Notes: a model not told the origin generated them from the letters alone. A DNA stretch of 53,816 nt from a virus (IMGVR_UViG_3300032050_000179:1-53816); one strand, 5' to 3'; counted from the stretch's first letter, positions 6,048-19,540 are shown. Numbers and translations: made by a program.

Positions 6048-7169
6048 TTAAGGTAGCGGAGGGAACGAAACTGCAAACTGCATATCTTCTTGGTAACGAA
6101 GTTTTCGAATCTTAAGCAAAAGCTGATTGACAAAGTCTCTATCTACATGTTCTGGTAACGTAGAAATTTCTAACAGATCATCGATTTTTTGAATCTTAGT
6201 TACAGCTTCTTCTATCAGAGAATTGTAATCATATTCTCCTCTTCGTATAGCTAATAGCTGTTCTCTATTCTCTCGCTTAACATTAATACCTTTCCCTTCG
6301 AAAATTTCCAGAGCTGTATCTAAAAGCCTGTGACAGTGAGCCAAATTCTTTCCATCGTATCCTTTATTATGAACCATGTTATCGGTAAATCTTTCTTGGT
6401 TCCTATTTTCTACCCAATCCCAATACTCTTTATAATCTTTGCAATAAGTAGAGTATCCATCCTTATTAAAATACATTACGAAAGCATGTTCTATTCCTTT
6501 AGGAATTTCTGACAATGAAATGTCATTAGATAGAATTTCATCTTGGACAATTCCCTTGACATGTTTTCCTGTTACAGATTTACCTTGTGTCAAGTAAGCT
6601 CCATAAGTATATCTCATGTGTGGTATACTCACAAGGCTCACATGTTCTTGACTCCATCCTGGATGCACTTTTATTAAATACTCTTTAACAGGAAGTGATC
6701 CTTGTTTGTACGAGACATGACAGAAATCTAAAACTCCTTTGCGCTCTTTTTCCATAGGTCTAACTATTTTCTTATTTAAACCTCTAGCCTTTTTGATCTG
6801 ATCGATAGCATATCCTCCAAAAGAATTTCTACATTTCTTGGTTATAAACTTAGTCTTCTCTCGCAGTACCATATCAAAAATAGGATCTTTGAAAAGAATA
6901 CATTCTTCGGGTAAGTTCAAAACTTCTAACATCGTTGGATTATTAGATTCTAAAAGTTGTAAAAATCTTCTAAGCTCGTAGAAGACAGTATCATTTTTGC
7001 TATCTGAAACTTGCTCAACATAGTTGAAATCTAAAATATTATCAAAAGGAATCATGAAAACACCTTTTATATCCACATCAGATGTTGGAGTAGAAATTCC
7101 ATAGGCTTGACTTCCGACTATGCCTTCGAATATAATTAAATTTTGATCTCTAAGTTCTTGTATTGTCAT
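6048..7169 (-). CDS. Pol-beta superfamily nucleotidyltransferase (YcgL/RlaP-like)
   Basis: GSQAYGISTPTSDVDIKGVF motif, NPTMLE, YDGKNLAHCHRLL; ATG at 7169 (track extends to TTG 7178). Confidence 0.85.
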   Translation of the reverse strand: MTIQELRDQNLIIFEGIVGSQAYGISTPTSDVDIKGVFMIPFDNILDFNYVEQVSDSKNDTVFYELRRFLQLLESNNPTMLEVLNLPEECILFKDPIFDMVLREKTKFITKKCRNSFGGYAIDQIKKARGLNKKIVRPMEKERKGVLDFCHVSYKQGSLPVKEYLIKVHPGWSQEHVSLVSIPHMRYTYGAYLTQGKSVTGKHVKGIVQDEILSNDISLSEIPKGIEHAFVMYFNKDGYSTYCKDYKEYWDWVENRNQERFTDNMVHNKGYDGKNLAHCHRLLDTALEIFEGKGINVKRENREQLLAIRRGEYDYNSLIEEAVTKIQKIDDLLEISTLPEHVDRDFVNQLLLKIRKLRYQEDMQFAVSFPPLP

Positions 7170-7201
7170 CTTTTGCAATTTTTAAAGTTTCTTTAAATTC
7201 A

Positions 7202-8614: not shown

Positions 8615-9397
8615 TTAATAAGGATTATCGATAACCCATTGATTATTAGAAAAGTAATTTTTTATAATGTTCATTGAAAGTACCGTATTTTTATCCACGG
8701 TTATCCCGTCAGAGTTTTCAATGTTTCTATAGTCGATAAAAAATCTTTTTTCTAAAAACGGTGCAACTCTTCTTTCAATCTTTTTCATTTTAAAGAAATA
8801 TGAAAAAATATGATCATCATGCATGGCTATTAAATTCTGGCTCTTGTGCAAATCTATCATCTCCTGTATATAAGAGATGAACTCATCTTTTTCTATCAAA
8901 TTTACAGGGTACAGTACACCTCTATAGCCTCCTACAATATCTACTACAAAATAATCAAAAGCCGAAGAATCGATTCTCTCTTGATGTATATAACTTTCTT
9001 CTCTGTGACCCATTATAGAGTAAACAGCATTAGGATTTTTTTCCCATGCGCTTACTAAAGATTCAATTGCTCTATTAGTCAAGAGGGCGTCATCATCGAA
9101 AGTAAAAATTAAGTCACCATTTTTAGTATCTACATGATTAATTGGTGACAGTAATTTTTTACAAGAGCCTATGTCTACGTTATCTTTGACAATTTGAGAC
9201 GGTATAGGATAAGTTTCTATGAATTTTTCTATTCTAGCCAAGTCTTCTTTTGGAAAGTATTTTTCATTTCTAGGATAGAAATCAGAAACTGAAATTAATA
9301 AGGAGTTTGGAAGAACTGTCTGTTCTAGTAAAGAACCTAAAACTTTAAATAAAGATTCCGCTCTTCCGGGTATTGTACATACTGAAGCAATTATCAT
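8615..9397 (-). CDS. GT-A fold glycosyltransferase
   Basis: IIASVCTIPGR N-terminus, FTFDDD (DxD), GGYRGVLYP, HDDH; likely start ATG 9397. Confidence 0.75.
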   Translation of the reverse strand: MIIASVCTIPGRAESLFKVLGSLLEQTVLPNSLLISVSDFYPRNEKYFPKEDLARIEKFIETYPIPSQIVKDNVDIGSCKKLLSPINHVDTKNGDLIFTFDDDALLTNRAIESLVSAWEKNPNAVYSIMGHREESYIHQERIDSSAFDYFVVDIVGGYRGVLYPVNLIEKDEFISYIQEMIDLHKSQNLIAMHDDHIFSYFFKMKKIERRVAPFLEKRFFIDYRNIENSDGITVDKNTVLSMNIIKNYFSNNQWVIDNPY

Positions 9398-9502
9398 AGC
9401 TAAATTTAAAAAATAGAACATTCAGGAGCTTCACCTGCCTTCTAGTATACATGGAACCTCTGTTAAAACAGTCAGAACCGAGCTTTCTTACTTTGTTCTA
9501 TT

Positions 9503-9587
9503 TGGTACTCTCGAAGGGACTCGAACCCTTACGCCTTTCGGCACTGGTTCCTAAGACCAGAGTGTCTACCTATTCCACCACGAGAGC
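9503..9587 (-). tRNA. trnL: tRNA-Leu(UAG)
   Basis: Cloverleaf, anticodon arm CTGGT-CTTAGGA-ACCAG, long variable arm, encoded CCA. Confidence 0.95.
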
Positions 9588-9592
9588 AAATT

Positions 9593-9787
9593 TTATTCTT
9601 CGAAAATTATTCCTTCATTCTCGACTAAAATATCATCAGCTATGTCTGAAAGAACTTCCGGTGCTTCTATTAAAGCATCATCGTTTTGCATTATCATTTC
9701 ACCTACGCCATATTTTTCAAAGTATTTAGTAAGTTTTTCTATAGCTTGTTCTTTTTTCTTCTCAGACCAAATTATTTTACAATGCAT
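9593..9787 (-). CDS. Small acidic hypothetical protein within tRNA operon
   Basis: 64-aa ORF between tRNA genes. Confidence 0.6.
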   Translation of the reverse strand: MHCKIIWSEKKKEQAIEKLTKYFEKYGVGEMIMQNDDALIEAPEVLSDIADDILVENEGIIFEE

Positions 9788-9803
9788 ATCATTTTTTTAG
9801 TAG

Positions 9804-9920
9804 TAGTCAGGGCAGGGCTCGAACCTGCAATCCTACCTGTTAGCTCGGATTTATCATCACTCGGTACGTTACTAACACATATACCAATCACTGAACGTCT
9901 ACCAATTCCGCCACCTGACT
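9804..9920 (-). ncRNA. tRNA-like RNA with anticodon region replaced by ~60-nt insert
   Basis: Perfect acceptor AGTCAGG/CCTGACT, D arm TGGCGGAATTGGTAGACG, T arm GCAGG-TTCGAGC-CCTGC; no canonical anticodon arm. Confidence 0.7.
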
Positions 9921-10062
9921 ATAAAAAACGGATAGAAAAAAGAACTCCTTAACAGTAAGACGTCTCTACTTCAAGAATCAGATTCAGTATTTAGATTACC
10001 GCGAATCTTCTAAATTACTTATTCTGCCATATACGATCTTTTTTCAGTTTAGTACTTTTATT

Positions 10063-10130
10063 TAAAGAATAAGGGACTCGAACCCTTGACCTCCGGACGC
10101 CGGTGCTCTCACCATCTGAGCTAAAACTTT
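10063..10130 (-). pseudogene. tRNA pseudogene / mimic with collapsed anticodon loop
   Basis: Canonical D and T arms; anticodon arm CCGG-CGT-CCGG; acceptor stem has two T-T mismatches. Confidence 0.65.
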
Positions 10131-10163
10131 GTTTTATTTTTTACTAAACTTTTTTCTCCGTCG

Positions 10164-10245
10164 TGACCTTGATGAGATTCGAACTCATACACCGTCTGGC
10201 ACAAGACCCTCAATCTTGCTTGTCTACCAATTTCAACACAAGGTC
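10164..10245 (-). tRNA. trnL: tRNA-Leu(GAG)
   Basis: CAAGA-TTGAGGG-TCTTG anticodon arm, long variable arm, acceptor GACCTTG/CAAGGTC. Confidence 0.9.
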
Positions 10246-10250
10246 AAATT

Positions 10251-10332
10251 GAGGTTGAGAACCTCTGTGTTGTTTAAAACTATTGTTCATTTTAACCTTA
10301 TTAGCAAATTCCTTTCTCAAGGGAACAACACA
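10251..10332 (-). ncRNA. Small structured RNA with kissing-loop potential
   Basis: TGTGTTGTT/AACAACACA stem; loop TTGAGAA complementary to loop TTCTCAA of GAGG/CCTC hairpin. Confidence 0.5.
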
Positions 10333-10338
10333 TAACTT

Positions 10339-10413
10339 GTCAGAGAATAATAAAAAGAGTGTTTGTAAGCAAATTCCAATATCAGCGATGTAACTCTTTT
10401 TTCCGCTTCTGAC
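10339..10413 (-). ncRNA. Y RNA-like element 1 (short, no tRNA domain)
   Basis: GTCAGAAGCGG..GAGTTACATC ... ACTC..ATTCTCTGAC; same bulged terminal stem as five other copies. Confidence 0.65.
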
Positions 10414-10419
10414 TTTCAG

Positions 10420-10493
10420 TGATCCCGGATGGATTCAAACCATCGACCTTAGCATTAGAAGTGCCACGCTCTATTCAACTGAGCTACGGAACC
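10420..10493 (-). tRNA. trnR: tRNA-Arg(UCU)
   Basis: Anticodon loop CTTCTAA; acceptor GGTTCCG/CGGGATC. Confidence 0.9.
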
Positions 10494-10545
10494 ATATCAA
10501 AGAACTTATATTTTAAAATAACAAACTAGTGTCTTTCTGAGAAAA

Positions 10546-10677
10546 TTATTTTTTCTTTTTTACTAATTTTTTAATGAATTTGTAAAACTTGTCATTTTTA
10601 TGTTCAGGTATTCTTAAGTATTTTCTCGATCCTTCAAATTGCCCTGTCATTACTGTTTTGATTTTGATTTCTTTCAT
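10546..10677 (-). CDS. Possible small basic protein (43 aa, MKEIKIKTVMTGQFEGSRKY...)
   Basis: Open frame with ATG between tRNA-Thr and tRNA-Arg; below ORF-track cutoff. Confidence 0.35.
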   Translation of the reverse strand: MKEIKIKTVMTGQFEGSRKYLRIPEHKNDKFYKFIKKLVKKKK

Positions 10678-10731
10678 ATATAAATTTAATACTATTATTA
10701 GAATTTTGAAATTGTATGACAAAATTCTTTG

Positions 10732-10804
10732 AGCCTTTGACAGGAGTCGAACCTGCGACCACGAAATTACAAAGTTCGCGCTCTACCAACTGAGCTACAA
10801 AGGC
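10732..10804 (-). tRNA. trnT: tRNA-Thr(UGU)
   Basis: Anticodon loop TTTGTAA; acceptor GCCTTTG/CAAAGGC. Confidence 0.9.
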
Positions 10805-10809
10805 AGTTC

Positions 10810-10947
10810 ATCTAGAGAATTTTTAGTACGAAGATTTTTCCGCGTCTACCAATTCCGCCATCTGGATAACCAGAGAGGGATTCGAACCCTCACGCTTTTA
10901 AAGCAGCCATTTTTCAGATGATGTAATCGTACTTACCGCTTCTAGAT
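10810..10947 (-). ncRNA. Y RNA-like element 2 (YrlA-like, permuted tRNA-Leu-like domain)
   Basis: TCTAGAAGCGG..CGATTACATC stem enclosing variable arm, T arm GAGGG-TTCGAAT-CCCTC, closed acceptor TCTGG-TTAT-CCAGA, then D arm. Confidence 0.75.
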
Positions 10948-10951
10948 TTAG

Positions 10952-11022
10952 TTACCGGGGAAGGATTCGAACCTCCGTTAAGTGGACCAAAACCACTTGT
11001 CCTGCCTCTAGACGACCCGGTA
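10952..11022 (-). tRNA. trnQ: tRNA-Gln(UUG)
   Basis: AGTGG-TTTTGGT-CCACT; acceptor TACCGGG/CCCGGTA. Confidence 0.92.
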
Positions 11023-11026
11023 TTAT

Positions 11027-11115
11027 TGGCGGAAAATAGTGGGATCGAACCACATACCAGTTAAGGTACGCATTACTTAGCAGGTAAGCCTTATCGCCGT
11101 TTAAGTTTACTTTCC
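11027..11115 (-). tRNA. trnS: tRNA-Ser(GCU)
   Basis: Anticodon loop CTGCTAA, long variable arm, G73-CCA. Confidence 0.88.
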
Positions 11116-11124
11116 ATTTCAAAA

Positions 11125-11234
11125 ATCAGTCAATGATAGAATCTTTCCTAGTTTCTTCGGTATAGGTACCATCATGGGCTCCGTTAACTGATTCTTTCTT
11201 TTATAACCCATACGGAACAAGCAGGGTAACTGAT
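11125..11234 (-). ncRNA. Small pseudoknot-containing structured RNA
   Basis: Terminal ATCAGTTA/TGACTGAT; interleaved TCCGT/ACGGA and ATGGG/CCCAT; ATGATGG/CTATCAT hairpin. Confidence 0.45.
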
Positions 11235-11240
11235 GTAAAG

Positions 11241-11314
11241 TCTGATAGGGAGGATTCGAACCTCCGAGTTCTCCACATCCCAAATGTGGCGGGGTACCAC
11301 TCCCCAACTACCAG
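11241..11314 (-). tRNA. trnP: tRNA-Pro(UGG)
   Basis: CCACA-TTTGGGA-TGTGG; acceptor CTGGTAG/CTATCAG. Confidence 0.9.
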
Positions 11315-11373
11315 AAATTTATTTCTATGCTACTCACTAAAAAGAGTCTATGAAATAATAACAGTCTTCTGTG

Positions 11374-11447
11374 GGTGACTAGCGGAAGTTGAATCCGCGA
11401 CCTCCAAGACCACAACTTGGCGCTCTAACCAACTGAGCTATAGTCAC
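11374..11447 (-). tRNA. trnH: tRNA-His(GUG)
   Basis: CCAAG-TTGTGGT-CTTGG; acceptor GTGACTA/TAGTCAC, C73. Confidence 0.92.
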
Positions 11448-11449
11448 AG

Positions 11450-11522
11450 AGTACCTGAAGGGATTCGAACCCCTGTTATAACGCTTTGCAGGCGTTTGCC
11501 TAAACCACTCGACCACAGGCAC
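11450..11522 (-). tRNA. trnC: tRNA-Cys(GCA)
   Basis: AACGC-CTGCAAA-GCGTT; U73. Confidence 0.92.
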
Positions 11523-11548
11523 TTATTAGACATACAAAACTGTCTCGG

Positions 11549-11635
11549 CGGAGAATGTAGGATTCGAACCTACGGAACCCTTTCAGGTTCGCTGCTTTTC
11601 AAGAGCAGTGCCATAAACCACTCGGCCAATTCTCC
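11549..11635 (-). tRNA. trnS: tRNA-Ser(UGA)
   Basis: CTGCT-CTTGAAA-AGCAG; long variable arm; G73. Confidence 0.95.
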
Positions 11636-11653
11636 ATTTATATTTCCATTATG

Positions 11654-11662
11654 TCAAAGAAC
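11654..11662 (-). promoter_or_regulatory. boxA-like antitermination element GTTCTTTGA
   Basis: Directly after attenuator A; same 9-mer at 10497-10505, 14285-14293, 16342-16350, variant at 14979-14987. Confidence 0.55.
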
Positions 11663-11668
11663 TTACAT

Positions 11669-11699
11669 AAAAAAACCGGATCTTTTTGAGATCCGGTTT
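11669..11699 (-). terminator. Attenuator terminator of tRNA operon A
   Basis: AAACCGGATCT-CAAAA-AGATCCGGTTT followed by T-run; 5' arm also complementary to AGATCCGGTT at 11736-11745 inside the leader ORF. Confidence 0.85.
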
Positions 11700-11720
11700 C
11701 TTAGTAAAATATGTAATTCG

Positions 11721-11837
11721 TTATTCACATACTTTAACCGGATCTACAATACTATGTCTAGGACTTTGCGAAAGCGTAGTCGGACATGAGCTTTGAAGAA
11801 GCTGTGTGGATAAAGATATGTGAGTAATATTTTTCAT
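11721..11837 (-). CDS. Leader peptide A (38 aa, MKNITHISLSTQLLQSSCPTTLSQSPRHSIVDPVKVCE)
   Basis: ATG just after promoter; codons 5-29 are almost only S,T,L,Q,H,C,P,R, the amino acids of the downstream tRNAs; contains antiterminator. Confidence 0.8.
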   Translation of the reverse strand: MKNITHISLSTQLLQSSCPTTLSQSPRHSIVDPVKVCE

Positions 11838-11847
11838 TGTTTATTAT

Positions 11848-11894
11848 TGTATTGCAAATATAACAAAAGTTCTTAACATGGAAAAACTTTTTGA
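11848..11894 (-). promoter_or_regulatory. Bacteroidota-type promoter (TATATTTG, -7 box) of tRNA operon A
   Basis: TAnnTTTG at 11855-11862; 47-nt block identical at 44/47 positions to 16661-16707. Confidence 0.75.
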
Positions 11895-11909
11895 AACTTT
11901 TTTATTTTT

Positions 11910-12419
11910 TTAAATTCTTCCTGATATAGCTTCTCTAAAAATTTCAGGAATTGTGAAAGTAGAAAGCTCTACCAGATCACATTTACTATTTACTAAAATG
12001 AACATTTCAAAATCTTGTCTCTTTTCAGTGCTATATTCCATTTTGAATTCCTTAGCAATTTTTCTTGAGAAATTACCGTAAAATTTCTTTCTTCCAGAAG
12101 AAGAATCGTTAGCGCAGAAAATAAAAGCTTCAGGATTAATTTCTGTTATGAAATCTATAGCAGCTTTTTCCACTGTAGGTATCACACTAAAAGCTTTCTT
12201 TAAATCATTTTTTAATTCGTAAGATCCGTCTACGTCAAATTTGAAAAGAAAATGTTTCTGTTTACTAGAAAAATTAACAGCTTTTATAGAGTAATTTGCG
12301 TCATCTATTAAAAAATTTCCTCTCCAAGAAGATTTCGACTTTTGCCATTGAACTTCTATTGGTTCATTCAAACCTTCAAAAGTTTTTGATAGAAAAGATC
12401 TGAAATTATCAATGTTCAT
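11910..12419 (-). CDS. Hypothetical protein
   Basis: ORF; likely start MNIDNFRSF at 12419 right after upstream stop. Confidence 0.7.
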   Translation of the reverse strand: MNIDNFRSFLSKTFEGLNEPIEVQWQKSKSSWRGNFLIDDANYSIKAVNFSSKQKHFLFKFDVDGSYELKNDLKKAFSVIPTVEKAAIDFITEINPEAFIFCANDSSSGRKKFYGNFSRKIAKEFKMEYSTEKRQDFEMFILVNSKCDLVELSTFTIPEIFREAISGRI

Positions 12420-12420
12420 G

Positions 12421-12630
12421 TTATTTTTCTTCGTTGGCATTCTTAGGATCGCCTAAATCATCTGCTTTAACATGTTCAGTATGCTCTGCTTTACCGTTCC
12501 CTTTTTCTACTGCATCTTTAGGATCAGAAAGATCCTCAGCTTTTGTTGTAGATCCTGAATAATGTTTCTTGACTAATGCAGAAGTTCCCATTTTACAAAA
12601 CTCTTCAAACGTTGCTATATTCTTTTTCAT
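12421..12630 (-). CDS. Small protein with T4 internal-protein-like N-terminus (MKKNIATFEEF)
   Basis: 69 aa, internal KAEDLSDPK/KADDLGDPK repeat; GATATATA at 12647-12654. Confidence 0.65.
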   Translation of the reverse strand: MKKNIATFEEFCKMGTSALVKKHYSGSTTKAEDLSDPKDAVEKGNGKAEHTEHVKADDLGDPKNANEEK

Positions 12631-12657
12631 AGTTTCTAATTTTAGGTATATATCAAA

Positions 12658-13053
12658 TCAGAGACCGAATTTTCTTCCTATTAAGGTGTATTTATTCTCT
12701 TCAATGTACTTAAGAAAAGCATTATAAAAAATTCTAGCAACCCGAATATTTCCGCCATATTTTTTTACATAAAATGTCGGAGCTGGTCCAAATGATGAAT
12801 CTCCGCATGTCCCGTATATGGCATACTTAGTTACTAATCGATCTCCTACATGAACTTTATATGCATAAGCATTCAAAGACCATGCATATCCTTTTATGCC
12901 CATTTTAGTGCATTTATCTTTTCCGACGTATATATTTGCGCTACGATGCTCGAAAAGGGAAGATATATTAGAAAACGCAGCCTCTGTTACATAAAGACCT
13001 AATGTCTTTTTTCTATTATCAATATTGATTTCTTTAAGTTCAAATCCATTCAT
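12658..13053 (-). CDS. Hypothetical protein (C-terminal GRKFGL)
   Basis: 131-aa ORF, ATGA overlap with upstream gene. Confidence 0.7.
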   Translation of the reverse strand: MNGFELKEINIDNRKKTLGLYVTEAAFSNISSLFEHRSANIYVGKDKCTKMGIKGYAWSLNAYAYKVHVGDRLVTKYAIYGTCGDSSFGPAPTFYVKKYGGNIRVARIFYNAFLKYIEENKYTLIGRKFGL

Positions 13054-13340
13054 AATTTTTCTAGTAAAGAAAAAGGATATTCTCTATGCGGTTCTAATTT
13101 ATGTACTATTGATTTGATATATTCAGCGTCAAGATAGCCGAAATTTTCAAGTAGACTAACTACAGTATCTATGCAAAAATCGGCAATTCCTAGAGAATTG
13201 GATTTATAAATTTTTTGAATAGAACAAAAAATATCTCCGTTTTTTAAATCACCTTTTTCGCTAAATAAATCTATCCTTAAATATTCACTATGAAGATCCA
13301 TAGTACAAATTCTTACACTGAAAATTTCAATTCTATTCAT
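13050..13340 (-). CDS. Hypothetical protein
   Basis: 96-aa ORF. Confidence 0.65.
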   Translation of the reverse strand: MNRIEIFSVRICTMDLHSEYLRIDLFSEKGDLKNGDIFCSIQKIYKSNSLGIADFCIDTVVSLLENFGYLDAEYIKSIVHKLEPHREYPFSLLEKL

Positions 13341-13382
13341 TTAATATTCATTTAATTAATGAGGGAATATGAAAGGTGTAAC

Positions 13383-13406
13383 AAAAGGAGGTTTAAACCT
13401 CCTTTT
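13383..13406. terminator. Intrinsic terminator ending tRNA operon B (bidirectional shape)
   Basis: AAAAGGAGGTTT/AAACCTCCTTTT perfect inverted repeat with A/T tails. Confidence 0.75.
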
Positions 13407-13415
13407 AATTCTTGT

Positions 13416-13645
13416 TTATTCATTGGGAATTCTCTTACTTTTATGATCTCTTTTATACTTATCATAAGTACACATGTAACAATTACAAGGTCTTCCTGTA
13501 GTCCTCAACCAATTGGAGTTTTACCTTCAATAGCTGATTGTAAATTGTAAGTTTCATGTGTATTGTTGGAGAACCAATTTTTTGCACGTCTAATAAATTT
13601 GACGAATTTTTTGTGCCTTCTAAAGGCTCGGCGATAGTTTTTCAT
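13416..13645 (-). pseudogene. Frameshifted small basic Cys-motif protein
   Basis: MKNYRRAFRRHKKF...GKTPIG* in frame 0; -1 frame continues NSNWLRTTGRPCNCYMCTYDKYKRD...NE*. Confidence 0.55.
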
Positions 13646-13672
13646 TTGCTCATACTTATGTTATAGCTAGTA

Positions 13673-13705
13673 ACTGTTGCCCCAGATACTGTTGCCCCAG
13701 ATACT
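13673..13705. repeat. 15-nt tandem duplication ACTGTTGCCCCAGAT x2
   Basis: Direct observation; lies in loop of AGCTAGTA/TACTAGCT hairpin. Confidence 0.85.
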
Positions 13706-13759
13706 AGCTTAGTGTATGAGCTTTCTAATAAATATCATCGTCTTTAATTTTTTTAAGTG

Positions 13760-13833
13760 TGGTCCATCCTGGACTCGAACCAGGGACCTTCGCATTATGA
13801 GTGCGCTGCTCTAACCGACTGAGCTAAAGGACC
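13760..13833 (-). tRNA. trnI: tRNA-Ile2(CAU) (lysidine-type; Met possible)
   Basis: Loop CTCATAA; GGTCCTTTAGCTCAGTCGGTTAGAGCA start resembles bacterial Ile2. Confidence 0.8.
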
Positions 13834-13836
13834 ATA

Positions 13837-13974
13837 AACTAGAGAATAATACTTCGAGCGTGTTTCTAGTGCTATCCGCTACACCACATCCGGATTACCC
13901 GAATGCCAGGATTCGAACCTGGGCCTTTTTTGTTACAGAAAAAATTGAAGTAACTCGTTGTTCCGCTTCTAGTT
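13837..13974 (-). ncRNA. Y RNA-like element 3 (YrlA-like)
   Basis: AACTAGAAGCGG..GAGTTACTTC; T arm CCAGG-TTCGAAT-CCTGG; closed acceptor CATTCGG-GTAAT-CCGGATG; D arm; ..ATTCTCTAGTT. Confidence 0.78.
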
Positions 13975-13980
13975 AATGTC

Positions 13981-14119
13981 TTGCAGAGAATGATTTCAAG
14001 AGTCTTTTTAGGACAAATGCTCTACCACCTGAGCTATACGCTTTCCATCAAGGTATACGTAGTAGGATTCGAACCTACGACCCATTGTTTTGAAGTAACT
14101 CTTCGAACCGCTTCTGCAA
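13981..14119 (-). ncRNA. Y RNA-like element 4 (YrlA-like)
   Basis: TTGCAGAAGCGG..GAGTTACTTC; T arm GTAGG-TTCGAAT-CCTAC; closed acceptor; D arm TAGCTCAGGTGGTAGAGCA; ..ATTCTCTGCAA. Confidence 0.78.
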
Positions 14120-14127
14120 TAAAATTT

Positions 14128-14275
14128 TTTCAGAGAATATTTGCTAGAGTGTAGTACGTGCTCTACCACTGAGCTAACTCGGTATTAAATGTGGAAGAAA
14201 TGTACCGAGTGAGGGAATCGAACCCCCGACCACGAGCTTAAGAGGCTGAAGTAACTCTTGCGACCGCTTCTGAAA
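14128..14275 (-). ncRNA. Y RNA-like element 5 (YrlA-like)
   Basis: TTTCAGAAGCGG..GAGTTACTTC; T arm; closed acceptor ACTCGGTA/TACCGAGT; D arm TAGCTCAGTGGTAGAGCA; ..ATTCTCTGAAA. Confidence 0.78.
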
Positions 14276-14298
14276 TATATTTTTTCAAAGAACAATTT

Positions 14299-14388
14299 GT
14301 CAGGCAATATGGAATCGAACCCTAATCCTGCGTCCCCTTTCCAGTTTAATGTACTCCGTTCTGCTGTGCACCATTACACCATGCCTAA
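14299..14388 (-). pseudogene. tRNA-like RNA without recognisable anticodon arm
   Basis: Acceptor TTAGGCA/TGCCTGA, D arm TGGTGTAATGGTGCAC, T loop GGTTCGATTCC; middle region non-canonical. Confidence 0.55.
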
Positions 14389-14437
14389 TCGAATGTTTCG
14401 AACCATTCGGGCGTAAGTTAATTAGACTTACGCTTTG

Positions 14438-14616
14438 CGATCCTAGACGGAATCGAACCGTCAGTGTAAATTACATGAAATATGCTTTGACTATGTACAT
14501 TTAAACTCCGATCCTAGTATTAAGGAGTGTCAAACCATATTTCCATCATCTACCCAATTTCACAATACATAATGACAGTTTCTAATGTTTTCGCCCATTG
14601 CTGTTGCTATAGGATC
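14438..14616 (-). ncRNA. 179-nt RNA with tRNA-like acceptor/T arm and long internal hairpin
   Basis: GATCCTA/TAGGATC acceptor; GACGG-TTCGATT-CCGTC T arm; internal GAAATATG/CATATTTC, TTTGAC/GTCAAA, ACTCC/GGAGT helices. Confidence 0.65.
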
Positions 14617-14622
14617 AATTTC

Positions 14623-14703
14623 AAACTGAGAATAATAACAAGAGCGTTGTTTCGGTTACAAAGTAAAAGTTTGTTGAAGTAACTCTCGTTTCCGCTTCAG
14701 TTT
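14623..14703 (-). ncRNA. Y RNA-like element 6 (short, no tRNA domain)
   Basis: AAACTGAAGCGG..GAGTTACTTC ... GCTC..ATTCTCAGTTT. Confidence 0.65.
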
Positions 14704-14752
14704 TAAAAAGTTCGTTTCTGTTAACCAACGTTATGATTACTAGAAACTAGCG

Positions 14753-14824
14753 TAGCGGGGGCCGGACTCGAACCGACGACCTCCAGGTTATGAGCCTGGC
14801 GAGCTACCACTGCTCTACCCCGCA
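14753..14824 (-). tRNA. trnM: tRNA-fMet(CAU), initiator-type
   Basis: CCAGG-CTCATAA-CCTGG; T1:T72 mismatch; TGCGGGGTAGAGCAG start. Confidence 0.88.
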
Positions 14825-14830
14825 ATATAG

Positions 14831-14913
<83 letters not shown>

Positions 14914-15043
14914 ATTTAACCAATACTCAATTTCTTTTTCAAATATTGTATTGGTTAGATAGTTAATTTTAAATTATTTCAAAGAATTATATTTCAAAAT
15001 AACAAAAGTTATTATGTTTGAGAAACATTTTTTACATTTTTTG

Positions 15044-15120
15044 TGGAGCGGAAGAAGGGATTCGAACCCTCGACCCCCTGCTTGGAAGGCAGGTGCTCTA
15101 ACCAGCTGAGCTACTTCCGC
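15044..15120 (-). tRNA. trnG: tRNA-Gly(UCC)
   Basis: CCTGC-CTTCCAA-GCAGG; U73-CCA. Confidence 0.95.
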
Positions 15121-15125
15121 TTGTG

Positions 15126-15199
15126 TGATCCCGGTGGGGCTCGAACCCACGACTCCCGCATTAAAAGTGCGATGCTCTAGCCAGCTGAGCTACGAGATC
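15126..15199 (-). tRNA. trnK: tRNA-Lys(UUU)
   Basis: Loop CTTTTAA; acceptor GATCTCG/CGGGATC. Confidence 0.92.
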
Positions 15200-15273
15200 A
15201 AGATGTAATGTTGTTTAGGTGCCATTACATTCAATCTCGAATGTAATGGCTAAAGCTTAGAGTTTTTCATTGA

Positions 15274-15468
15274 TCAGTTTTTGTATTTTGTTTTTCTGTT
15301 GTGTTTCCACGTTTTGTATTCTCTCCATTTATGATTAGGAAGATCTCCATGATTCCATGTCCATCCTTCTTCATAATATGGAGGGTAATACCATTTCAAG
15401 ATTATCTTACGATACTCTTTGTTGTTATGAGCTTTGTTAAATTTAGCTCTGTTGTAATTTTTACTCAT
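15274..15468 (-). CDS. Small basic Trp/Tyr-rich protein
   Basis: 64 aa, ends REYKTWKHNRKTKYKN; preceded by uORF MKKEFDNL* and hairpin. Confidence 0.7.
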   Translation of the reverse strand: MSKNYNRAKFNKAHNNKEYRKIILKWYYPPYYEEGWTWNHGDLPNHKWREYKTWKHNRKTKYKN

Positions 15469-15531
15469 TGTTGTAGGTTTTAGTTAACCTACAAGTTATC
15501 AAATTCTTTTTTCATATTAATAGTTTTGTAG

Positions 15532-15603
15532 TTACGAAGAGGAATTTCGAAATCCTGGCCTTCCGGATATGAGCCGGATGCTCTGCCTCTGAGCTACTTC
15601 GTA
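15532..15603 (-). tRNA. trnM: tRNA-Met(CAU), elongator-type
   Basis: TCCGG-CTCATAT-CCGGA; acceptor TACGAAG/CTTCGTA. Confidence 0.85.
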
Positions 15604-15609
15604 ATTAGA

Positions 15610-15810
15610 TTAAGCTATCCACCTGATAAGCAATTTTCCTTCCATACTGTTCAAGAAATCTGCATCTCCCATATCTTCAACAGGAATTTGAAAATGAACT
15701 CTCGTTTCTTCAAGATCTGCATAATAATACGCTACTCCTTTTCGTATAAATTGAATACGTGCTTCCGGGTTTTGCTTGTAGAGAGCTTTTTTGATTTCGT
15801 TCTTTTCCAT
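15610..15810 (-). CDS. Hypothetical protein within tRNA operon
   Basis: 66-aa ORF with ATG and A-rich leader. Confidence 0.7.
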   Translation of the reverse strand: MEKNEIKKALYKQNPEARIQFIRKGVAYYYADLEETRVHFQIPVEDMGDADFLNSMEGKLLIRWIA

Positions 15811-15829
15811 TATACGTTTATTTAGTTAG

Positions 15830-15903
15830 TTGAAACAGTAAGACTCGAACTTACGACCTCCTCGGTATCAGCGAGGTGCTCTAACCAACTGAGCTATATT
15901 TCA
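15830..15903 (-). tRNA. trnI: tRNA-Ile(GAU)
   Basis: CCTCG-CTGATAC-CGAGG. Confidence 0.92.
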
Positions 15904-15908
15904 ATTTG

Positions 15909-15983
15909 CGACGGTGGTAGGACTCGAACCTACTATCCTCGACTTAACAGGCCGTAGCTATATACCACTTAAGCTTCACCGTC
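15909..15983 (-). tRNA. trnN: tRNA-Asn(GUU)
   Basis: Loop CTGTTAA; acceptor GACGGTG/CACCGTC; G73. Confidence 0.9.
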
Positions 15984-15991
15984 ATTTTTTG

Positions 15992-16064
15992 CACAGGAGG
16001 CAGGAATCGAACCTGCAACCACCGGTTTTGGAGACCGGTACTCTACCAATTGAGCTACTCCTGT
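15992..16064 (-). tRNA. trnW: tRNA-Trp(CCA)
   Basis: CCGGT-CTCCAAA-ACCGG. Confidence 0.93.
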
Positions 16065-16070
16065 GTATAG

Positions 16071-16144
16071 TGGATCCTAGGGGACTCGAACCCCTGACCC
16101 CCTGCGTGCAAGGCAGGTGCTCTAGCCATCTGAGCTAAGGACCC
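16071..16144 (-). tRNA. trnA: tRNA-Ala(UGC)
   Basis: CCTGC-CTTGCAC-GCAGG; G3:U70 identity pair. Confidence 0.95.
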
Positions 16145-16151
16145 AATTTAG

Positions 16152-16224
16152 CGGTCCTGAAGGGATTCGAACCCTCGATCTCCTCCGTGACAGGGAGGCG
16201 TCCACTCCACTGGACTGCAGGACC
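16152..16224 (-). tRNA. trnD: tRNA-Asp(GUC)
   Basis: CCTCC-CTGTCAC-GGAGG; G73. Confidence 0.93.
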
Positions 16225-16251
16225 TTGATGACAGTACAAAAACTGTCTCGG

Positions 16252-16325
16252 TCACCCGTATGGGATTCGAACCCATGATCTTCTCCGTGAAAGGGAGACG
16301 ACTTAAACCTCTTGTCCAACGGGCG
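16252..16325 (-). tRNA. trnE: tRNA-Glu(UUC)
   Basis: TCTCC-CTTTCAC-GGAGA. Confidence 0.93.
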
Positions 16326-16362
16326 TTGGAATTATAATATGTCAAAGAACGTTTTCTTTTTG

Positions 16363-16435
16363 TGGTACCGACTGGAATCGAACCAGTGACACAAGGATTT
16401 TCAGTCCTTTGCTCTACCGACTGAGCTACGGTACC
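16363..16435 (-). tRNA. trnF: tRNA-Phe(GAA)
   Basis: AAGGA-CTGAAAA-TCCTT; acceptor GGTACCG/CGGTACC. Confidence 0.95.
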
Positions 16436-16445
16436 AAGTTAATGC

Positions 16446-16481
16446 AAAAGAAAAGCCTCGGTTTTTGACCGAGGCTTTTCT
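16446..16481 (-). terminator. Attenuator terminator of tRNA operon B
   Basis: AGAAAAGCCTCGGT-CAAAA-ACCGAGGCTTTTCTTTT; 5' arm also complementary to ACCGAGG at 16523-16529 in leader ORF. Confidence 0.85.
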
Positions 16482-16498
16482 GAATTTTAATTTCTATA

Positions 16499-16636
16499 TT
16501 ATAGTGTCGTTAAATCCATTTTCCTCGGTTGAAATTTCTCAATATCAAACTCAAACCCTTTCGCAGCATAGCCATAATTGTCGGCCATCTTATTGGCTTT
16601 CCAATTATTATTTTCTATGTTGTTAATGTTGTACAT
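16499..16636 (-). CDS. Leader peptide B (45 aa, MYNINNIENNNWKANKMADNYGYAAKGFEFDIEKFQPRKMDLTTL)
   Basis: ATG after promoter; first 35 codons use only M,Y,N,I,E,W,K,A,D,G,F, the amino acids of the downstream tRNAs; contains antiterminator. Confidence 0.82.
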   Translation of the reverse strand: MYNINNIENNNWKANKMADNYGYAAKGFEFDIEKFQPRKMDLTTL

Positions 16637-16660
16637 TTGAAAGTGTATTTGTTTTATTTT

Positions 16661-16707
16661 TGTATTGCAAATATAACAATAGTTTTTAACGTGGAAAAAC
16701 TTTTTGA
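16661..16707 (-). promoter_or_regulatory. Bacteroidota-type promoter (TATATTTG) of tRNA operon B
   Basis: TAnnTTTG at 16668-16675; near-identical to 11848-11894. Confidence 0.75.
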
Positions 16708-16728
16708 TTATTTTCTAAAAATTTTTTT

Positions 16729-17085
16729 CTAGTAACCAATTTCTTCTACTAGATCAAGGAATTTGACCCATTTTTCACCATCTGGTCTTTCTTCAAGAAC
16801 ATTAGCTACAAATCCAAATCCTTCTCGTTCTGTCCTTTCATAGTAATCACCAAGATCTGCATCTTCTTCACCAGAAGCAACATTTGGTTCAACAACACAA
16901 GCAGCTGCTTGGTTGTAAATCTTCATCAAGTTTTCATCGTTCAAGATAGCATCCGCATCTTTAGCCAATAATTGATCAAGACCTCTAGGATTTGATCTTT
17001 CAAAATCTGAACATGCACTCATTACCATGTCAGCCCAAGAATCTGATTCATTTAACCAGTTTTCAAAAAGTTTAATATGTTTCAT
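16729..17085 (-). CDS. Acidic protein with MKHIKLFENWLNES N-terminus (putative internal head protein)
   Basis: 118 aa; GATATATA at 17101-17108; N-terminus resembles T4 capsid-targeting sequence. Confidence 0.7.
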   Translation of the reverse strand: MKHIKLFENWLNESDSWADMVMSACSDFERSNPRGLDQLLAKDADAILNDENLMKIYNQAAACVVEPNVASGEEDADLGDYYERTEREGFGFVANVLEERPDGEKWVKFLDLVEEIGY

Positions 17086-17099
17086 ATTTTGGATTTTTC

Positions 17100-18290
17100 T
17101 TATATATCTTTAAGAATAAAATTTTTTCTCAAAACTGGATTATCAAACATTTCCATAGTTTCCGTTGATAAATTCTTTTGAAGAACTTCTCTCTGCACAT
17201 CTAAGTGATCTTGATAGTTTTCTTTTATCCATTCAAATTTTTCTTTGAGTTCTTTTTCGTCATTAAACACATAATCAGAAAGTTCTCTATAGATATTCTC
17301 AGAATCTATTTTACCATAAATGAGAAAAACTGTTCTAGCTATACTTGCGTCATACAGAGTCTTGTTGAAATAGTAGCTGCTATCTTCACCCTTTCCAACA
17401 AAAAGATAAGCTATGTAACTGTTCAATTCTTTGTACATCTCATCTTTGACAATAGGTTCTTCTATCATTTCAATAGAAGAAATTTTTCTTAAACTTCCGT
17501 TGATAGTTCTCTCCGCTGTTCTTAAAAAGAGAGGAACTTCTGAAGATTTCATTATCTCTTTAATCTTTCTAACTTTACCTGGGTTTAAGTTACCTACATG
17601 ATAGAGTAAATTCTTTTTCTCTTCTATTCCTAAATTAGAATTGTTCTCGTAACATTCCTCGTACCTAAAAAGAATATCGTCGGAAATGTAACAAGATCTA
17701 TTCTGAACATTTTCTTTTTCTAAGAAAGGCATAGTCTTAGTCAAAGTTATCCATGACCAATCGCAAACTTCTCTATTTCCATTGCATAAGAAATAAACAT
17801 TGTCGTAATTAGTCATTTTAACATTATCTAGAGAATGAAGATGTTTGGGATTTCTTTCTACGAATTTTATACCGCTTTCCGTGGTGTTTATTCTATCTTG
17901 GATCATCTTTTTATAATCTCTCATTTCATGCTTAAAGTCGCATATCCTGAAATAAACTTTCAAGTCTTGTTCATTGGTGATATGAGAAAGAATTTTGTAA
18001 AGATCCACAGCTTTAGGGCTAATAACTCCTCCGAAGAAATCTTGGTACCAATCCCAAGTGAATAACAAATCTACTTTAGTGAATTTTTCTACATCAGCAA
18101 AACCGTTTACATGCACTCTAGTGAATTCAAAATCGAATTCATCTAACATGTGTGAGTATTTGCCTTTATAATCAAAAATGTATACCTTTTCAATATTAGG
18201 ATGATTAAATAGTGTGTTATAACATCTCAGCTCGTTGAAGAGCATTCCGTTCATTGTAAAATCAAAATGTAGAAAAAAACCTACTTTCAT
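17100..18290 (-). CDS. T4 beta-glucosyltransferase-like GT-B enzyme (putative DNA glycosyltransferase)
   Basis: DFFGG...KVYFRICD and YIAYLFVG...TLYDASIARTVFLIYGKID resemble recalled T4 BGT motifs; similar size. Confidence 0.6.
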   Translation of the reverse strand: MKVGFFLHFDFTMNGMLFNELRCYNTLFNHPNIEKVYIFDYKGKYSHMLDEFDFEFTRVHVNGFADVEKFTKVDLLFTWDWYQDFFGGVISPKAVDLYKILSHITNEQDLKVYFRICDFKHEMRDYKKMIQDRINTTESGIKFVERNPKHLHSLDNVKMTNYDNVYFLCNGNREVCDWSWITLTKTMPFLEKENVQNRSCYISDDILFRYEECYENNSNLGIEEKKNLLYHVGNLNPGKVRKIKEIMKSSEVPLFLRTAERTINGSLRKISSIEMIEEPIVKDEMYKELNSYIAYLFVGKGEDSSYYFNKTLYDASIARTVFLIYGKIDSENIYRELSDYVFNDEKELKEKFEWIKENYQDHLDVQREVLQKNLSTETMEMFDNPVLRKNFILKDI

Positions 18291-18823: not shown

Positions 18824-19540
18824 TTATTTATCTATACCGTTTTCCTCTTTGTATTTTTCATAATTGTCTGTCAATTCTATAAGTATAGGGTTTCTAACTA
18901 TGTCTGCTCTAGTGAATTCAAAAGTAGAACAGCTATTAACACCTTTGGAGATTTTTTCTCCGAATACTAGCAGATCTTTTCTCCTGTTTTTGATGTCCCA
19001 TTGAGTAACGTCTCCACATATAATGATTCTAGAATTTCTACCCATCCTTGTCACTACTAGCATCAACTGCCTTAAATCTGCATTTTGTGCTTCATCTAGT
19101 ATTAAGATAGTATCGTCAAAAGTTTCACTTCTCATGAAAGCTAGAGGTTCCATAGTTATAAGATCTGCAGCCATGATAGCTTTTAACTTATCGTTATCTA
19201 TGATTTTTTTCATGTTAGAAACATATCCTTTCATGTAAGGAGCTATCTTTTCTTCTATAGTCCCGGGTAAGAAACCTAGATTTTCTCCAGATTCCACAGC
19301 AGGTCTAGCTAAAATGATTTTTTTATGTGCACCTTCTCTCAACAAGTCTAACGCTGCGTAACAAGCAACAAATGTTTTTGCTGTACCAGCAGGTCCTGTG
19401 CAGACTGTTAAGAAATTATCTTTAATAGTCTTGAAAAAAGTCAACTGCGAATGTGAAAATTTTATCGTGTTGAAATCTGCTTTGTGGAGTTGTAACACAT
19501 TAGCTTGTTCTTCCTCCTTTTTTGGTTTTCTTTTTTGCAT
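18824..19540 (-). CDS. phoH: PhoH-family ATPase
   Basis: GPAGTAKT Walker A, RPAVE, LGFLPG, LDEAQN, TRMG, GDVTQ, DIVRNP. Confidence 0.95.
   Translation of the reverse strand: MQKRKPKKEEEQANVLQLHKADFNTIKFSHSQLTFFKTIKDNFLTVCTGPAGTAKTFVACYAALDLLREGAHKKIILARPAVESGENLGFLPGTIEEKIAPYMKGYVSNMKKIIDNDKLKAIMAADLITMEPLAFMRSETFDDTILILDEAQNADLRQLMLVVTRMGRNSRIIICGDVTQWDIKNRRKDLLVFGEKISKGVNSCSTFEFTRADIVRNPILIELTDNYEKYKEENGIDK

Follow-up and report, generated by a model that had tools for sequence, protein, structure and literature searches.

We describe a short open reading frame (ORF) ahead of 13 phage tRNA genes that, judging from its sequence and that of its relatives, likely forms part of a ribosome-mediated (leader-peptide) transcription attenuator gating the tRNA operon, which would open when the operon's own amino acids are decoded slowly. 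The phage probably makes these tRNAs only when decoding of the leader codons slows. The ORF, its restricted amino acid alphabet, the terminator, the complementarity between the two, the conservation of this unit and its co-variation with tRNA content can all be read directly from the DNA.

Two tRNA operons and their leaders

The window analyzed here is an entire viral record of 53.8 kb with 33% G+C, estimated to represent ~19% of a genome. Nearly all of its long ORFs are carried by the minus strand. It contains 22 tRNA genes split into two blocks, B and A, each preceded by a unit composed of a promoter-like motif, a leader ORF and an intrinsic terminator (Table 1). The tRNAs of block B correspond to exactly 11 amino acids, and no tRNA-Val is present among the 22 tRNAs of the window. 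Three of the 22 carry the anticodon CAU and may be initiator, elongator or Ile2 tRNAs.

Table 1. Features of units B and A and of the tRNA blocks that follow them. Positions are those of the window.
Feature	Position	Strand	Description
Promoter-like 39-nt motif, unit B	16660-16698	-	Putative promoter; contains TATATTTG at 16675-16668
A-rich stretch		-	23 nt between the 39-nt motif and leader B; no Shine-Dalgarno sequence
Leader ORF B	16499-16636	-	45 codons plus stop; MYNINNIENNNWKANKMADNYGYAAKGFEFDIEKFQPRKMDLTTL
Sensor codons, leader B	16532-16636	-	35 codons covering all 11 amino acids served by the tRNAs downstream, and no others
Antiterminator 5′ strand, unit B	16523-16529	-	ACCGAGG in the ORF tail, identical to 7 nt of the terminator 3′ arm
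Spacer between leader B and hairpin		-	17 nt
Intrinsic terminator B	16449-16481	-	Arms 16481-16468 and 16462-16449; 14-bp stem (7 G-C), loop CAAAA (16467-16463), U-rich tail
tRNA block B	16435-13759	-	13 tRNAs in the order F, E, D, A, W, N, I, M, K, G, Y, M, M; small ORFs interspersed
Possible end of operon B	13386-13403	-	Weak, short hairpin with 7-bp stem and T-run; putative function
Promoter-like 39-nt motif, unit A	11847-11885	-	Second copy
Leader ORF A	11721-11837	-	38 codons; MKNITHISLSTQLLQSSCPTTLSQSPRHSIVDPVKVCE
Antiterminator strand, unit A	11735-11749	-	In the ORF tail; duplex -16.9 kcal/mol; 0/300 shuffles as good
Terminator A	11672-11700	-	12-bp stem, loop CAAAA (11688-11684), T-run; tRNA-Ser follows
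tRNA block A	11635-9503	-	S, C, H, P, Q, T, R, L, L

The 39-nt promoter-like motif has only two matches in the window (≤3 mismatches; 0 expected), one ahead of each leader, and a near-identical motif precedes the homologous leader in the viral contig L004 (see below). The sequence TATATTTG within the unit B copy resembles a Bacteroidota-type -7 box. Shine-Dalgarno-like 4-mers precede just 1 of 42 long ORFs, compared with 12% of random positions, and the upstream regions are 50% A. These properties and the TAnnTTTG-like box point to a Bacteroidota-type host. Terminator B ends 13 nt ahead of tRNA-Phe, which leaves no space for a promoter in between. The sole sigma-70-type match near unit A (TTGACA...GAGAAT, 11657-11629) was rejected as a promoter located between terminator A and the tRNA, as its transcript would start inside tRNA-Ser.

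Translation of the minus strand from 16636 to 16499 confirms the original prediction that the first 35 residues of this ORF lack Leu, Ser, Thr, Val, Pro, Gln, Arg, His and Cys. A count of codons bears out the accompanying statements that both synonyms are used for Tyr, Asn, Glu, Lys and Asp, that Ala is encoded by GCC, GCT and GCG, and that Gly is encoded by GGC and GGG. For Ile, the codons ATT and ATA are both present as described. The further assertion, reading of ATA by an Ile2-type tRNA of the phage, is not established by the three CAU tRNAs, whose identities could not be assigned. The presence or absence of amino acids in leader B agrees with the tRNA set for 20 of 20 amino acids, a level of agreement reached by none of 20,000 random peptides. 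Given the B alphabet, the occurrence of all 11 amino acids is not unusual by itself (P = 0.35). Leader A has the same architecture as leader B, including the CAAAA terminator loop that had been reported for both, and its codons 8-29 (11816-11751) cover the whole set S, C, H, P, Q, T, R and L without any other amino acid.

When all six frames of the window are scanned, the longest run confined to the B alphabet is leader B (35 residues; runner-up 17), and the longest run confined to the A alphabet is the core of leader A (22 residues; runner-up 12). Since the B alphabet makes up 0.586 of the residues in the long ORFs of the window, the probability that 34 further residues remain within it is 1.3e-8, and 8e-4 such runs are expected per window. 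The corresponding values for the A alphabet, which makes up 0.35 of the residues, are 9e-11 and ~1e-5 runs. The alphabet match of leader B is real and far beyond chance.

Other features are found in the vicinity of the arrays. Weak, sub-threshold tRNA-like and Y-RNA-like (YrlA) matches at 13906-14275 (minus strand) lie in inter-tRNA gaps of block B and may be degenerate or interrupted tRNAs. Directly downstream of the tRNA blocks (6048-7178, minus strand) is the gene for a 376-aa RlaP-domain protein (RNA-repair-pathway nucleotidyltransferase, E = 7.7e-17), which may have an RNA or tRNA repair function beside the arrays. A PhoH-like ATPase (phrog_170, E = 5.5e-62) is encoded at 18824-19540 (minus strand), 2.2 kb upstream of unit B, and is 75-77% identical to homologues in 208-434-kb relatives, where it lies away from tRNAs. 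The exact 12-mer GTTCTTTGACAT occurs on the minus strand after terminator A (11651-11662) and after the tRNA-Phe of block B (16339-16350), and also near position 2988 of L004. We rejected this 12-mer as a repeated signal, as its count at ≤2 mismatches equals the chance expectation.

Co-variation of leaders and tRNA sets in other phages

Searches of a phage collection at the DNA level returned tRNA matches only, tblastn with the neighbouring 396-aa protein gave no match in this collection, and the 118-aa upstream protein led to three distant loci, all lacking tRNAs. Homologues of the 396-aa protein were found in L004 and in the metagenome contig L053, with 71% identity in each case, and a protein search with leader B identified P0002. 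The leader frame, whose conservation in related phages the original prediction had put at stake, is kept in L004, L053 and P0002. Identity to leader B is 80% for P0002 and 55% and 36% for L004 and L053, respectively, compared with the 71% identity of the neighbouring protein in the latter two, and the leaders thus diverge faster.

Changes in the leaders largely stay within the expected amino acids. Among the substituted or inserted sensor residues of the three homologous leaders, 40 of 44 fall within alphabet B plus Val (P = 8e-5 against 0.65). Val is present in the L004 and L053 leaders, both belonging to contigs with tRNA-Val in their arrays, and is absent from the leader of the window, which has no such tRNA. 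The P0002 leader has three Val residues and is located on a contig too short to show the array. An insert of ~770 nt interrupts the L004 gene (2160-2985) that corresponds in position to tRNA-Phe of the window, and contains another tRNA-Phe and a 213-aa ORF that has a sub-threshold Phage_endo_I match. This insert resembles a mobile endonuclease cassette supplied with a tRNA to replace the interrupted one.

More distant relatives partition their tRNAs differently. Homologues of the PhoH-like protein (75-77% identity) led to 208-434-kb records with 32-35 tRNAs, none of them close to the PhoH genes, and a search with the promoter-like motif added 343-373-kb records. The 373-434-kb relatives have the clusters Pro-Trp-Gln-Lys-Tyr-Asn-Phe-Gly-Met-Ala-Val and Ser-Thr-Cys-His-Leu-Met-Glu-Asp, both of which are preceded by a paralogous promoter-like motif, an ORF of 30-42 codons and a terminator located 22-32 nt before the first tRNA. 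Asp/Glu and Pro/Gln thus reside in a different operon than in the window, and the leader residues have switched likewise. Sensors ahead of the Pro/Trp cluster contain no D or E and two to three P, and those ahead of the Ser/Thr cluster contain one to two each of D and E and no P.

For six complete units and 20 amino acids, we counted 57 cases in which leader residue and tRNA are both present and 45 in which both are absent, with 15 amino acids present in the leader only and 3 represented by a tRNA only. Sensor residues favor the unit's own set over the sister set of the same genome by 58 versus 4 of 62, 45 versus 12 of 56 and 47 versus 8 of 57. Each of the six units is significant singly (binomial P from 1.3e-8 to 1.8e-3), with at most 22 of 20,000 random peptides reaching the observed agreement. 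Leaders ahead of the Pro/Trp cluster have 4 off-set residues among 31-32. Run length was rejected as a criterion for these leaders because their runs are not exceptional within their own loci, and they are supported instead by in-set fraction and coverage.

Some tRNA clusters in the relatives have a promoter-like motif but no leader. In a 430-kb relative, a promoter-like motif and a 57-aa basic ORF precede an Arg-Ile-Gln cluster (L046, 1118-1291), and a lipoprotein-like 59-aa ORF, a terminator and a promoter-like motif precede an Arg-Leu cluster (L045, 3324-3503), with no panel-type leader in either case. At ~6556 of L073 (oriented), an Arg-Ile-Gln cluster includes a tRNA with the anticodon UUA, which reads the stop codon UAA, where other clusters have tRNA-Ile.

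A broader survey was made possible by a 64-aa protein encoded within block B (15274-15468, minus strand), a conserved basic protein that has homologues of 64-82 aa in tRNA arrays of many phages and no Pfam match. Its alignment retrieved 44 further viral loci. Units were defined by a fixed rule, namely a perfect-stem terminator ≤90 nt before a tRNA on the same strand, preceded by the longest ATG-initiated ORF of 18-75 codons that ends ≤110 nt before the terminator, with the tRNA set of each unit extending to the next such unit. This strict scan found units in 24 of the 44 loci and none in the other 20, yielding 41 units with an ORF; removal of near-duplicates and inclusion of five earlier units gave 32 non-redundant units. 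The set includes ordinary genes that the rule also caught, namely two lipoprotein-like ORFs and a 63-aa ORF in L119 (0/62 residues in-set).

The summed z-score for the fit of each leader to its own tRNA set is 67.6 for the 32 units, compared with 2.4 ± 8.3 (maximum 31.3) for shuffled pairings, none of 10,000 of which reach the observed value. Individual units match widely different sets. Three units in L083 split the 20 amino acids three ways (S/R/P/I/M/L, E/D/M/L and a 16-amino-acid set), and the third leader (8984-9091) has 28 consecutive in-set residues that use all 16 amino acids, with E, P and D confined to the last five residues. A 14-amino-acid unit in L096 has 29 of 30 residues in-set and uses all 14, the Cys/Val/Leu units of L108 and L111 have leaders with runs of those three amino acids only, and the leader of the single 19-amino-acid unit of L098 has used each of the 20 amino acids by about residue 31. 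One unit, in L088, has no fit (8/26 residues in-set versus 8.2 expected).

When the 17 tRNA-bearing loci that had yielded no unit, together with L080 and L088, were rescanned with relaxed hairpin criteria, further convincing units emerged in L085, L104 and L111. The L080 leader fits its own 15-amino-acid set if GTG is taken as the start codon, and is associated with a TATAAT-type box instead of the TAnnTTTG-like one. Neither scan revealed a convincing unit in 17 of the 44 loci, among which some arrays begin outside the DNA examined. In two unrelated tRNA-rich phages, XacN1 and a T5-like Klebsiella phage, the terminator-plus-leader arrangement is absent before tRNA clusters.

In most units, the first tRNA begins 6-40 nt after the terminator, leaving no space for a separate promoter. 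Loops of the leader terminators nearly always consist of a pyrimidine and a run of A (CAAAA, CTAAAA, TCAAAAA and similar), unlike those of other terminators in the same loci.

A predicted switch and what it may sense

The segment ACCGAGG in the tail of leader B (16529-16523) is complementary to CCTCGGT in the 5′ arm of the terminator, as the original prediction had stated, and the predicted duplex has a free energy of -13.1 kcal/mol. A second candidate found by RNAduplex in unit B lies inside the sensor (nt 49-68, -14.1 kcal/mol). In the homologous L004 and L053 leaders, other segments score better than this candidate, and the ACCGAGG segment corresponds to the best segment of L004. When the RNA of the eight units studied first is folded as it would exist before the 3′ arm is made, the 5′ arm pairs with the last leader codons in all eight, and the resulting helix encloses the stop codon.

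The strength of this pairing varies among the eight units. The best energies, each followed by the number of 300 shuffled leaders that score as well, are -20.6 kcal/mol (0) for G001-P, -16.9 (0) for unit A of the window, -15.2 (6) for the L004 homologue of unit B, -14.1 (6) for unit B itself and -12.4 (7) for G001-S. Values for the L053 homologue of unit B (-10.7 kcal/mol, 35), G006-P (-9.6, 49) and G006-S (-8.7, 87) are not significant.

Among the automated non-redundant units, 20 of 27 have a tail segment complementary to the 5′ arm of their own terminator (≤10 of 200 shuffles as good), and these terminators comprise over a dozen distinct sequences. The segment is near the stop codon in 24 of 27. 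The other seven units do not reach significance, three of them being ordinary control ORFs (105, 156 and 74 of 200 shuffles as good). The tail sequence therefore co-varies with the terminator. All in silico expectations of a leader-peptide attenuator that could be evaluated are borne out, including those concerning frame, alphabet, co-variation with tRNAs, concerted change of tail and terminator, and the lack of room for a promoter. No 1:2 anti-antiterminator hairpin is evident. The folds place a hairpin immediately before the antiterminator strand, and the two share only ~4 nt.

We infer promoter use, leader translation, the kinetics of coupling and the physiological trigger from this arrangement, and propose that the switch would operate as follows. 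Transcription would begin from the promoter-like motif (16698-16660), and the 45-codon leader would be translated immediately. A ribosome that runs smoothly to the stop codon should cover the ORF tail and the loop that the antiterminator helix must enclose, such that ACCGAGG could not pair with the 5′ arm. With ACCGAGG masked, the 14-bp terminator would form and RNA polymerase would halt 13 nt before tRNA-Phe. A ribosome stalled within approximately the first 30 sensor codons, and thus at least ~15 nt upstream, would leave the tail free to capture the 5′ arm before the 3′ arm is made, thereby blocking the terminator and permitting transcription of the 13 tRNAs. This design would provide negative feedback, wherein a short tRNA pool leads to more phage tRNA, faster translation and resumed termination. 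If no ribosome is loaded, the default is predicted to be read-through.

Contigs from four RNA-library runs (Logan) that align to positions 9400-17100 are mostly partial tRNA matches from other organisms, together with a few low-depth pieces.

The leader matches its operon by amino acid, and the match is imperfect at the codon level. Synonymous codons, several of them otherwise rare, are more widely sampled in the leaders than in phage genes. Leader A has 18 distinct codons among 22 (simulated 14.3 ± 1.4, P = 0.010) and leader B has 20 among 35 (simulated 17.2 ± 1.5, P = 0.058). The operon's own tRNAs can read 29 of 34 codons in leader B by strict wobble and 33 of 34 by extended wobble, and 15 of 28 (strict) and 20 of 28 (extended) in leader A. 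In leader B, the codons GCC (twice), GCT and GGC require four-way wobble by U34, and ATA requires an unproven Ile2 tRNA. In leader A, TTA and three AGY codons are unreadable by the Leu and Ser tRNAs of block A, and this coverage rules out anticodon-level matching as the organizing rule for this leader. Because the record is only ~19% of a genome, the missing isoacceptors may be encoded elsewhere. In units that have Ser-UGA/GGA/GCU and Leu-UAA tRNAs, every in-set codon is covered by extended wobble, and strict wobble misses one ACT in G001-S.

Because the sensor codons specify exactly the amino acids for which the operon can supply tRNAs, the leader would act as an OR-gate over those species. 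We tentatively suggest, as one possibility, that the leaders are codon panels that measure, species by species, the decodability of the amino acids that their own operon can replace. Such a panel could serve as an inducible counter-measure, wherein cleavage or depletion of any tRNA, by host anticodon nucleases or through phage shut-off, would stall the leader ribosome and turn on the replacement set. The panel would then be rewritten whenever a tRNA gene enters, leaves or moves operon.

The same attenuator might instead report amino acid (charging) starvation or a general slowing of translation, with the operon being a general stress-induced unit. The fit by amino acid, the wide sampling of synonymous codons, the several leader codons that are unreadable by the operon's own tRNAs and the predicted default of read-through when no ribosome is present would all suit a sensor of this kind. 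However, a general sensor would not be expected to omit the sister operon's amino acids or to track the gain, loss and transfer of tRNAs between operons, and starvation for an amino acid is not relieved by extra tRNA, which makes this explanation unlikely.

We regard as very unlikely the proposal that the ORF is an independent gene for a small functional peptide, with a promoter and terminator serving that gene, while leaky read-through produces the tRNAs and the composition match has some other cause. The ORF does have a promoter-like motif and a strong terminator, and it is called as a protein in public data, with seven member sequences on six contigs, but its sequence is poorly conserved (36-55% identity) while the alphabet is kept. 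Moreover, unrelated-looking leaders in many phages match their own tRNA sets, and the complementarity between tail and terminator co-varies with the terminator. Finally, many amino acids of set B have A/T-rich codons, in a genome of 33% G+C, but we give almost no credence to chance or local base composition as the source of the match, given that 0 of 100,000 composition-preserving nucleotide shuffles stay in the alphabet for the leader B core (105 nt) and likewise for the leader A core, that the other two frames of the leader B DNA do not fit (18/36 and 9/35 residues in-set), that the C-rich set A exhibits the same effect, and that the match is replicated in other genomes with different sets at a level that no permutation reaches.

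Known attenuators and implications for phage tRNA arrays

Leader-peptide attenuators regulate amino acid biosynthesis operons such as trp, his, leu and pheA, and the thr and ilv leaders respond to two or three amino acids. The phage units resemble these in that the promoter is followed by a short leader with regulatory codons, here predicted to be translated, and then by an intrinsic terminator that precedes the genes under control. They also share an alternative pairing of the 3′ part of the leader with the 5′ arm of the terminator, such that stalling would lead to read-through. Unlike the biosynthetic attenuators, the phage element is viral and would regulate tRNAs rather than enzymes, its panel covers 3 to 19 amino acids (11 in unit B) instead of one to three and co-varies with the gene content of the operon, and no 1:2 hairpin is evident. 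None of the leader families in Rfam matches at gathering score (the best, Phe_leader, has 24.1 bits versus 55, E = 0.96), and no riboswitch family does so.

In E. coli, the pheST synthetase operon lies behind a Phe-rich leader, and there also a component of the decoding apparatus is controlled by the reading speed of its own kind of codon. However, the pheST leader senses one amino acid only, its target codes for protein, and the gene is cellular. T-box riboswitches share with the phage units a terminator/antiterminator switch, a response to a specific tRNA state and a link to genes of aminoacyl-tRNA supply, but they bind uncharged tRNA directly through one specifier codon and act independently of translation, whereas the phage unit is an ORF with many codons. 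No Rfam match to a T-box is found at E values up to 1.

Phage tRNA sets have been reported to compensate for, or evade, host defences that target tRNAs (PMC10264068, PMC11555353, PMC11464382). These papers provide a reason why phages would need tRNAs precisely when host tRNAs fail, and concern the role of the tRNAs rather than control of their synthesis. The terms ‘attenuat’, ‘leader’ and ‘terminator’ are absent from the searchable text of PMC10264068 and PMC12482277, and no description of leader-peptide control of tRNA genes was found in searches of the open full-text literature. The class of mechanism is textbook, while the tRNA target, the viral setting, the multi-amino-acid panel and the co-evolution with operon content appear, within that literature, to be undescribed.

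The purpose of phage-encoded tRNAs has been a matter of debate for decades, and the control of these genes has received hardly any attention. If our interpretation is correct, a large group of big phages would regulate tRNA supply by demand, putting the oldest known RNA switch to a new use. The leaders would represent many-amino-acid sensors whose vocabulary is kept in register with the genes they control, and this regulatory sequence, by co-evolving with operon content, would permit the prediction of co-transcribed tRNAs from sequence only. They may also offer a compact design for synthetic sensors of decoding capacity. For the phages themselves, such leaders would provide a testable link between tRNA arrays and the depletion of tRNAs by defence nucleases, host shut-off or codon mismatch.
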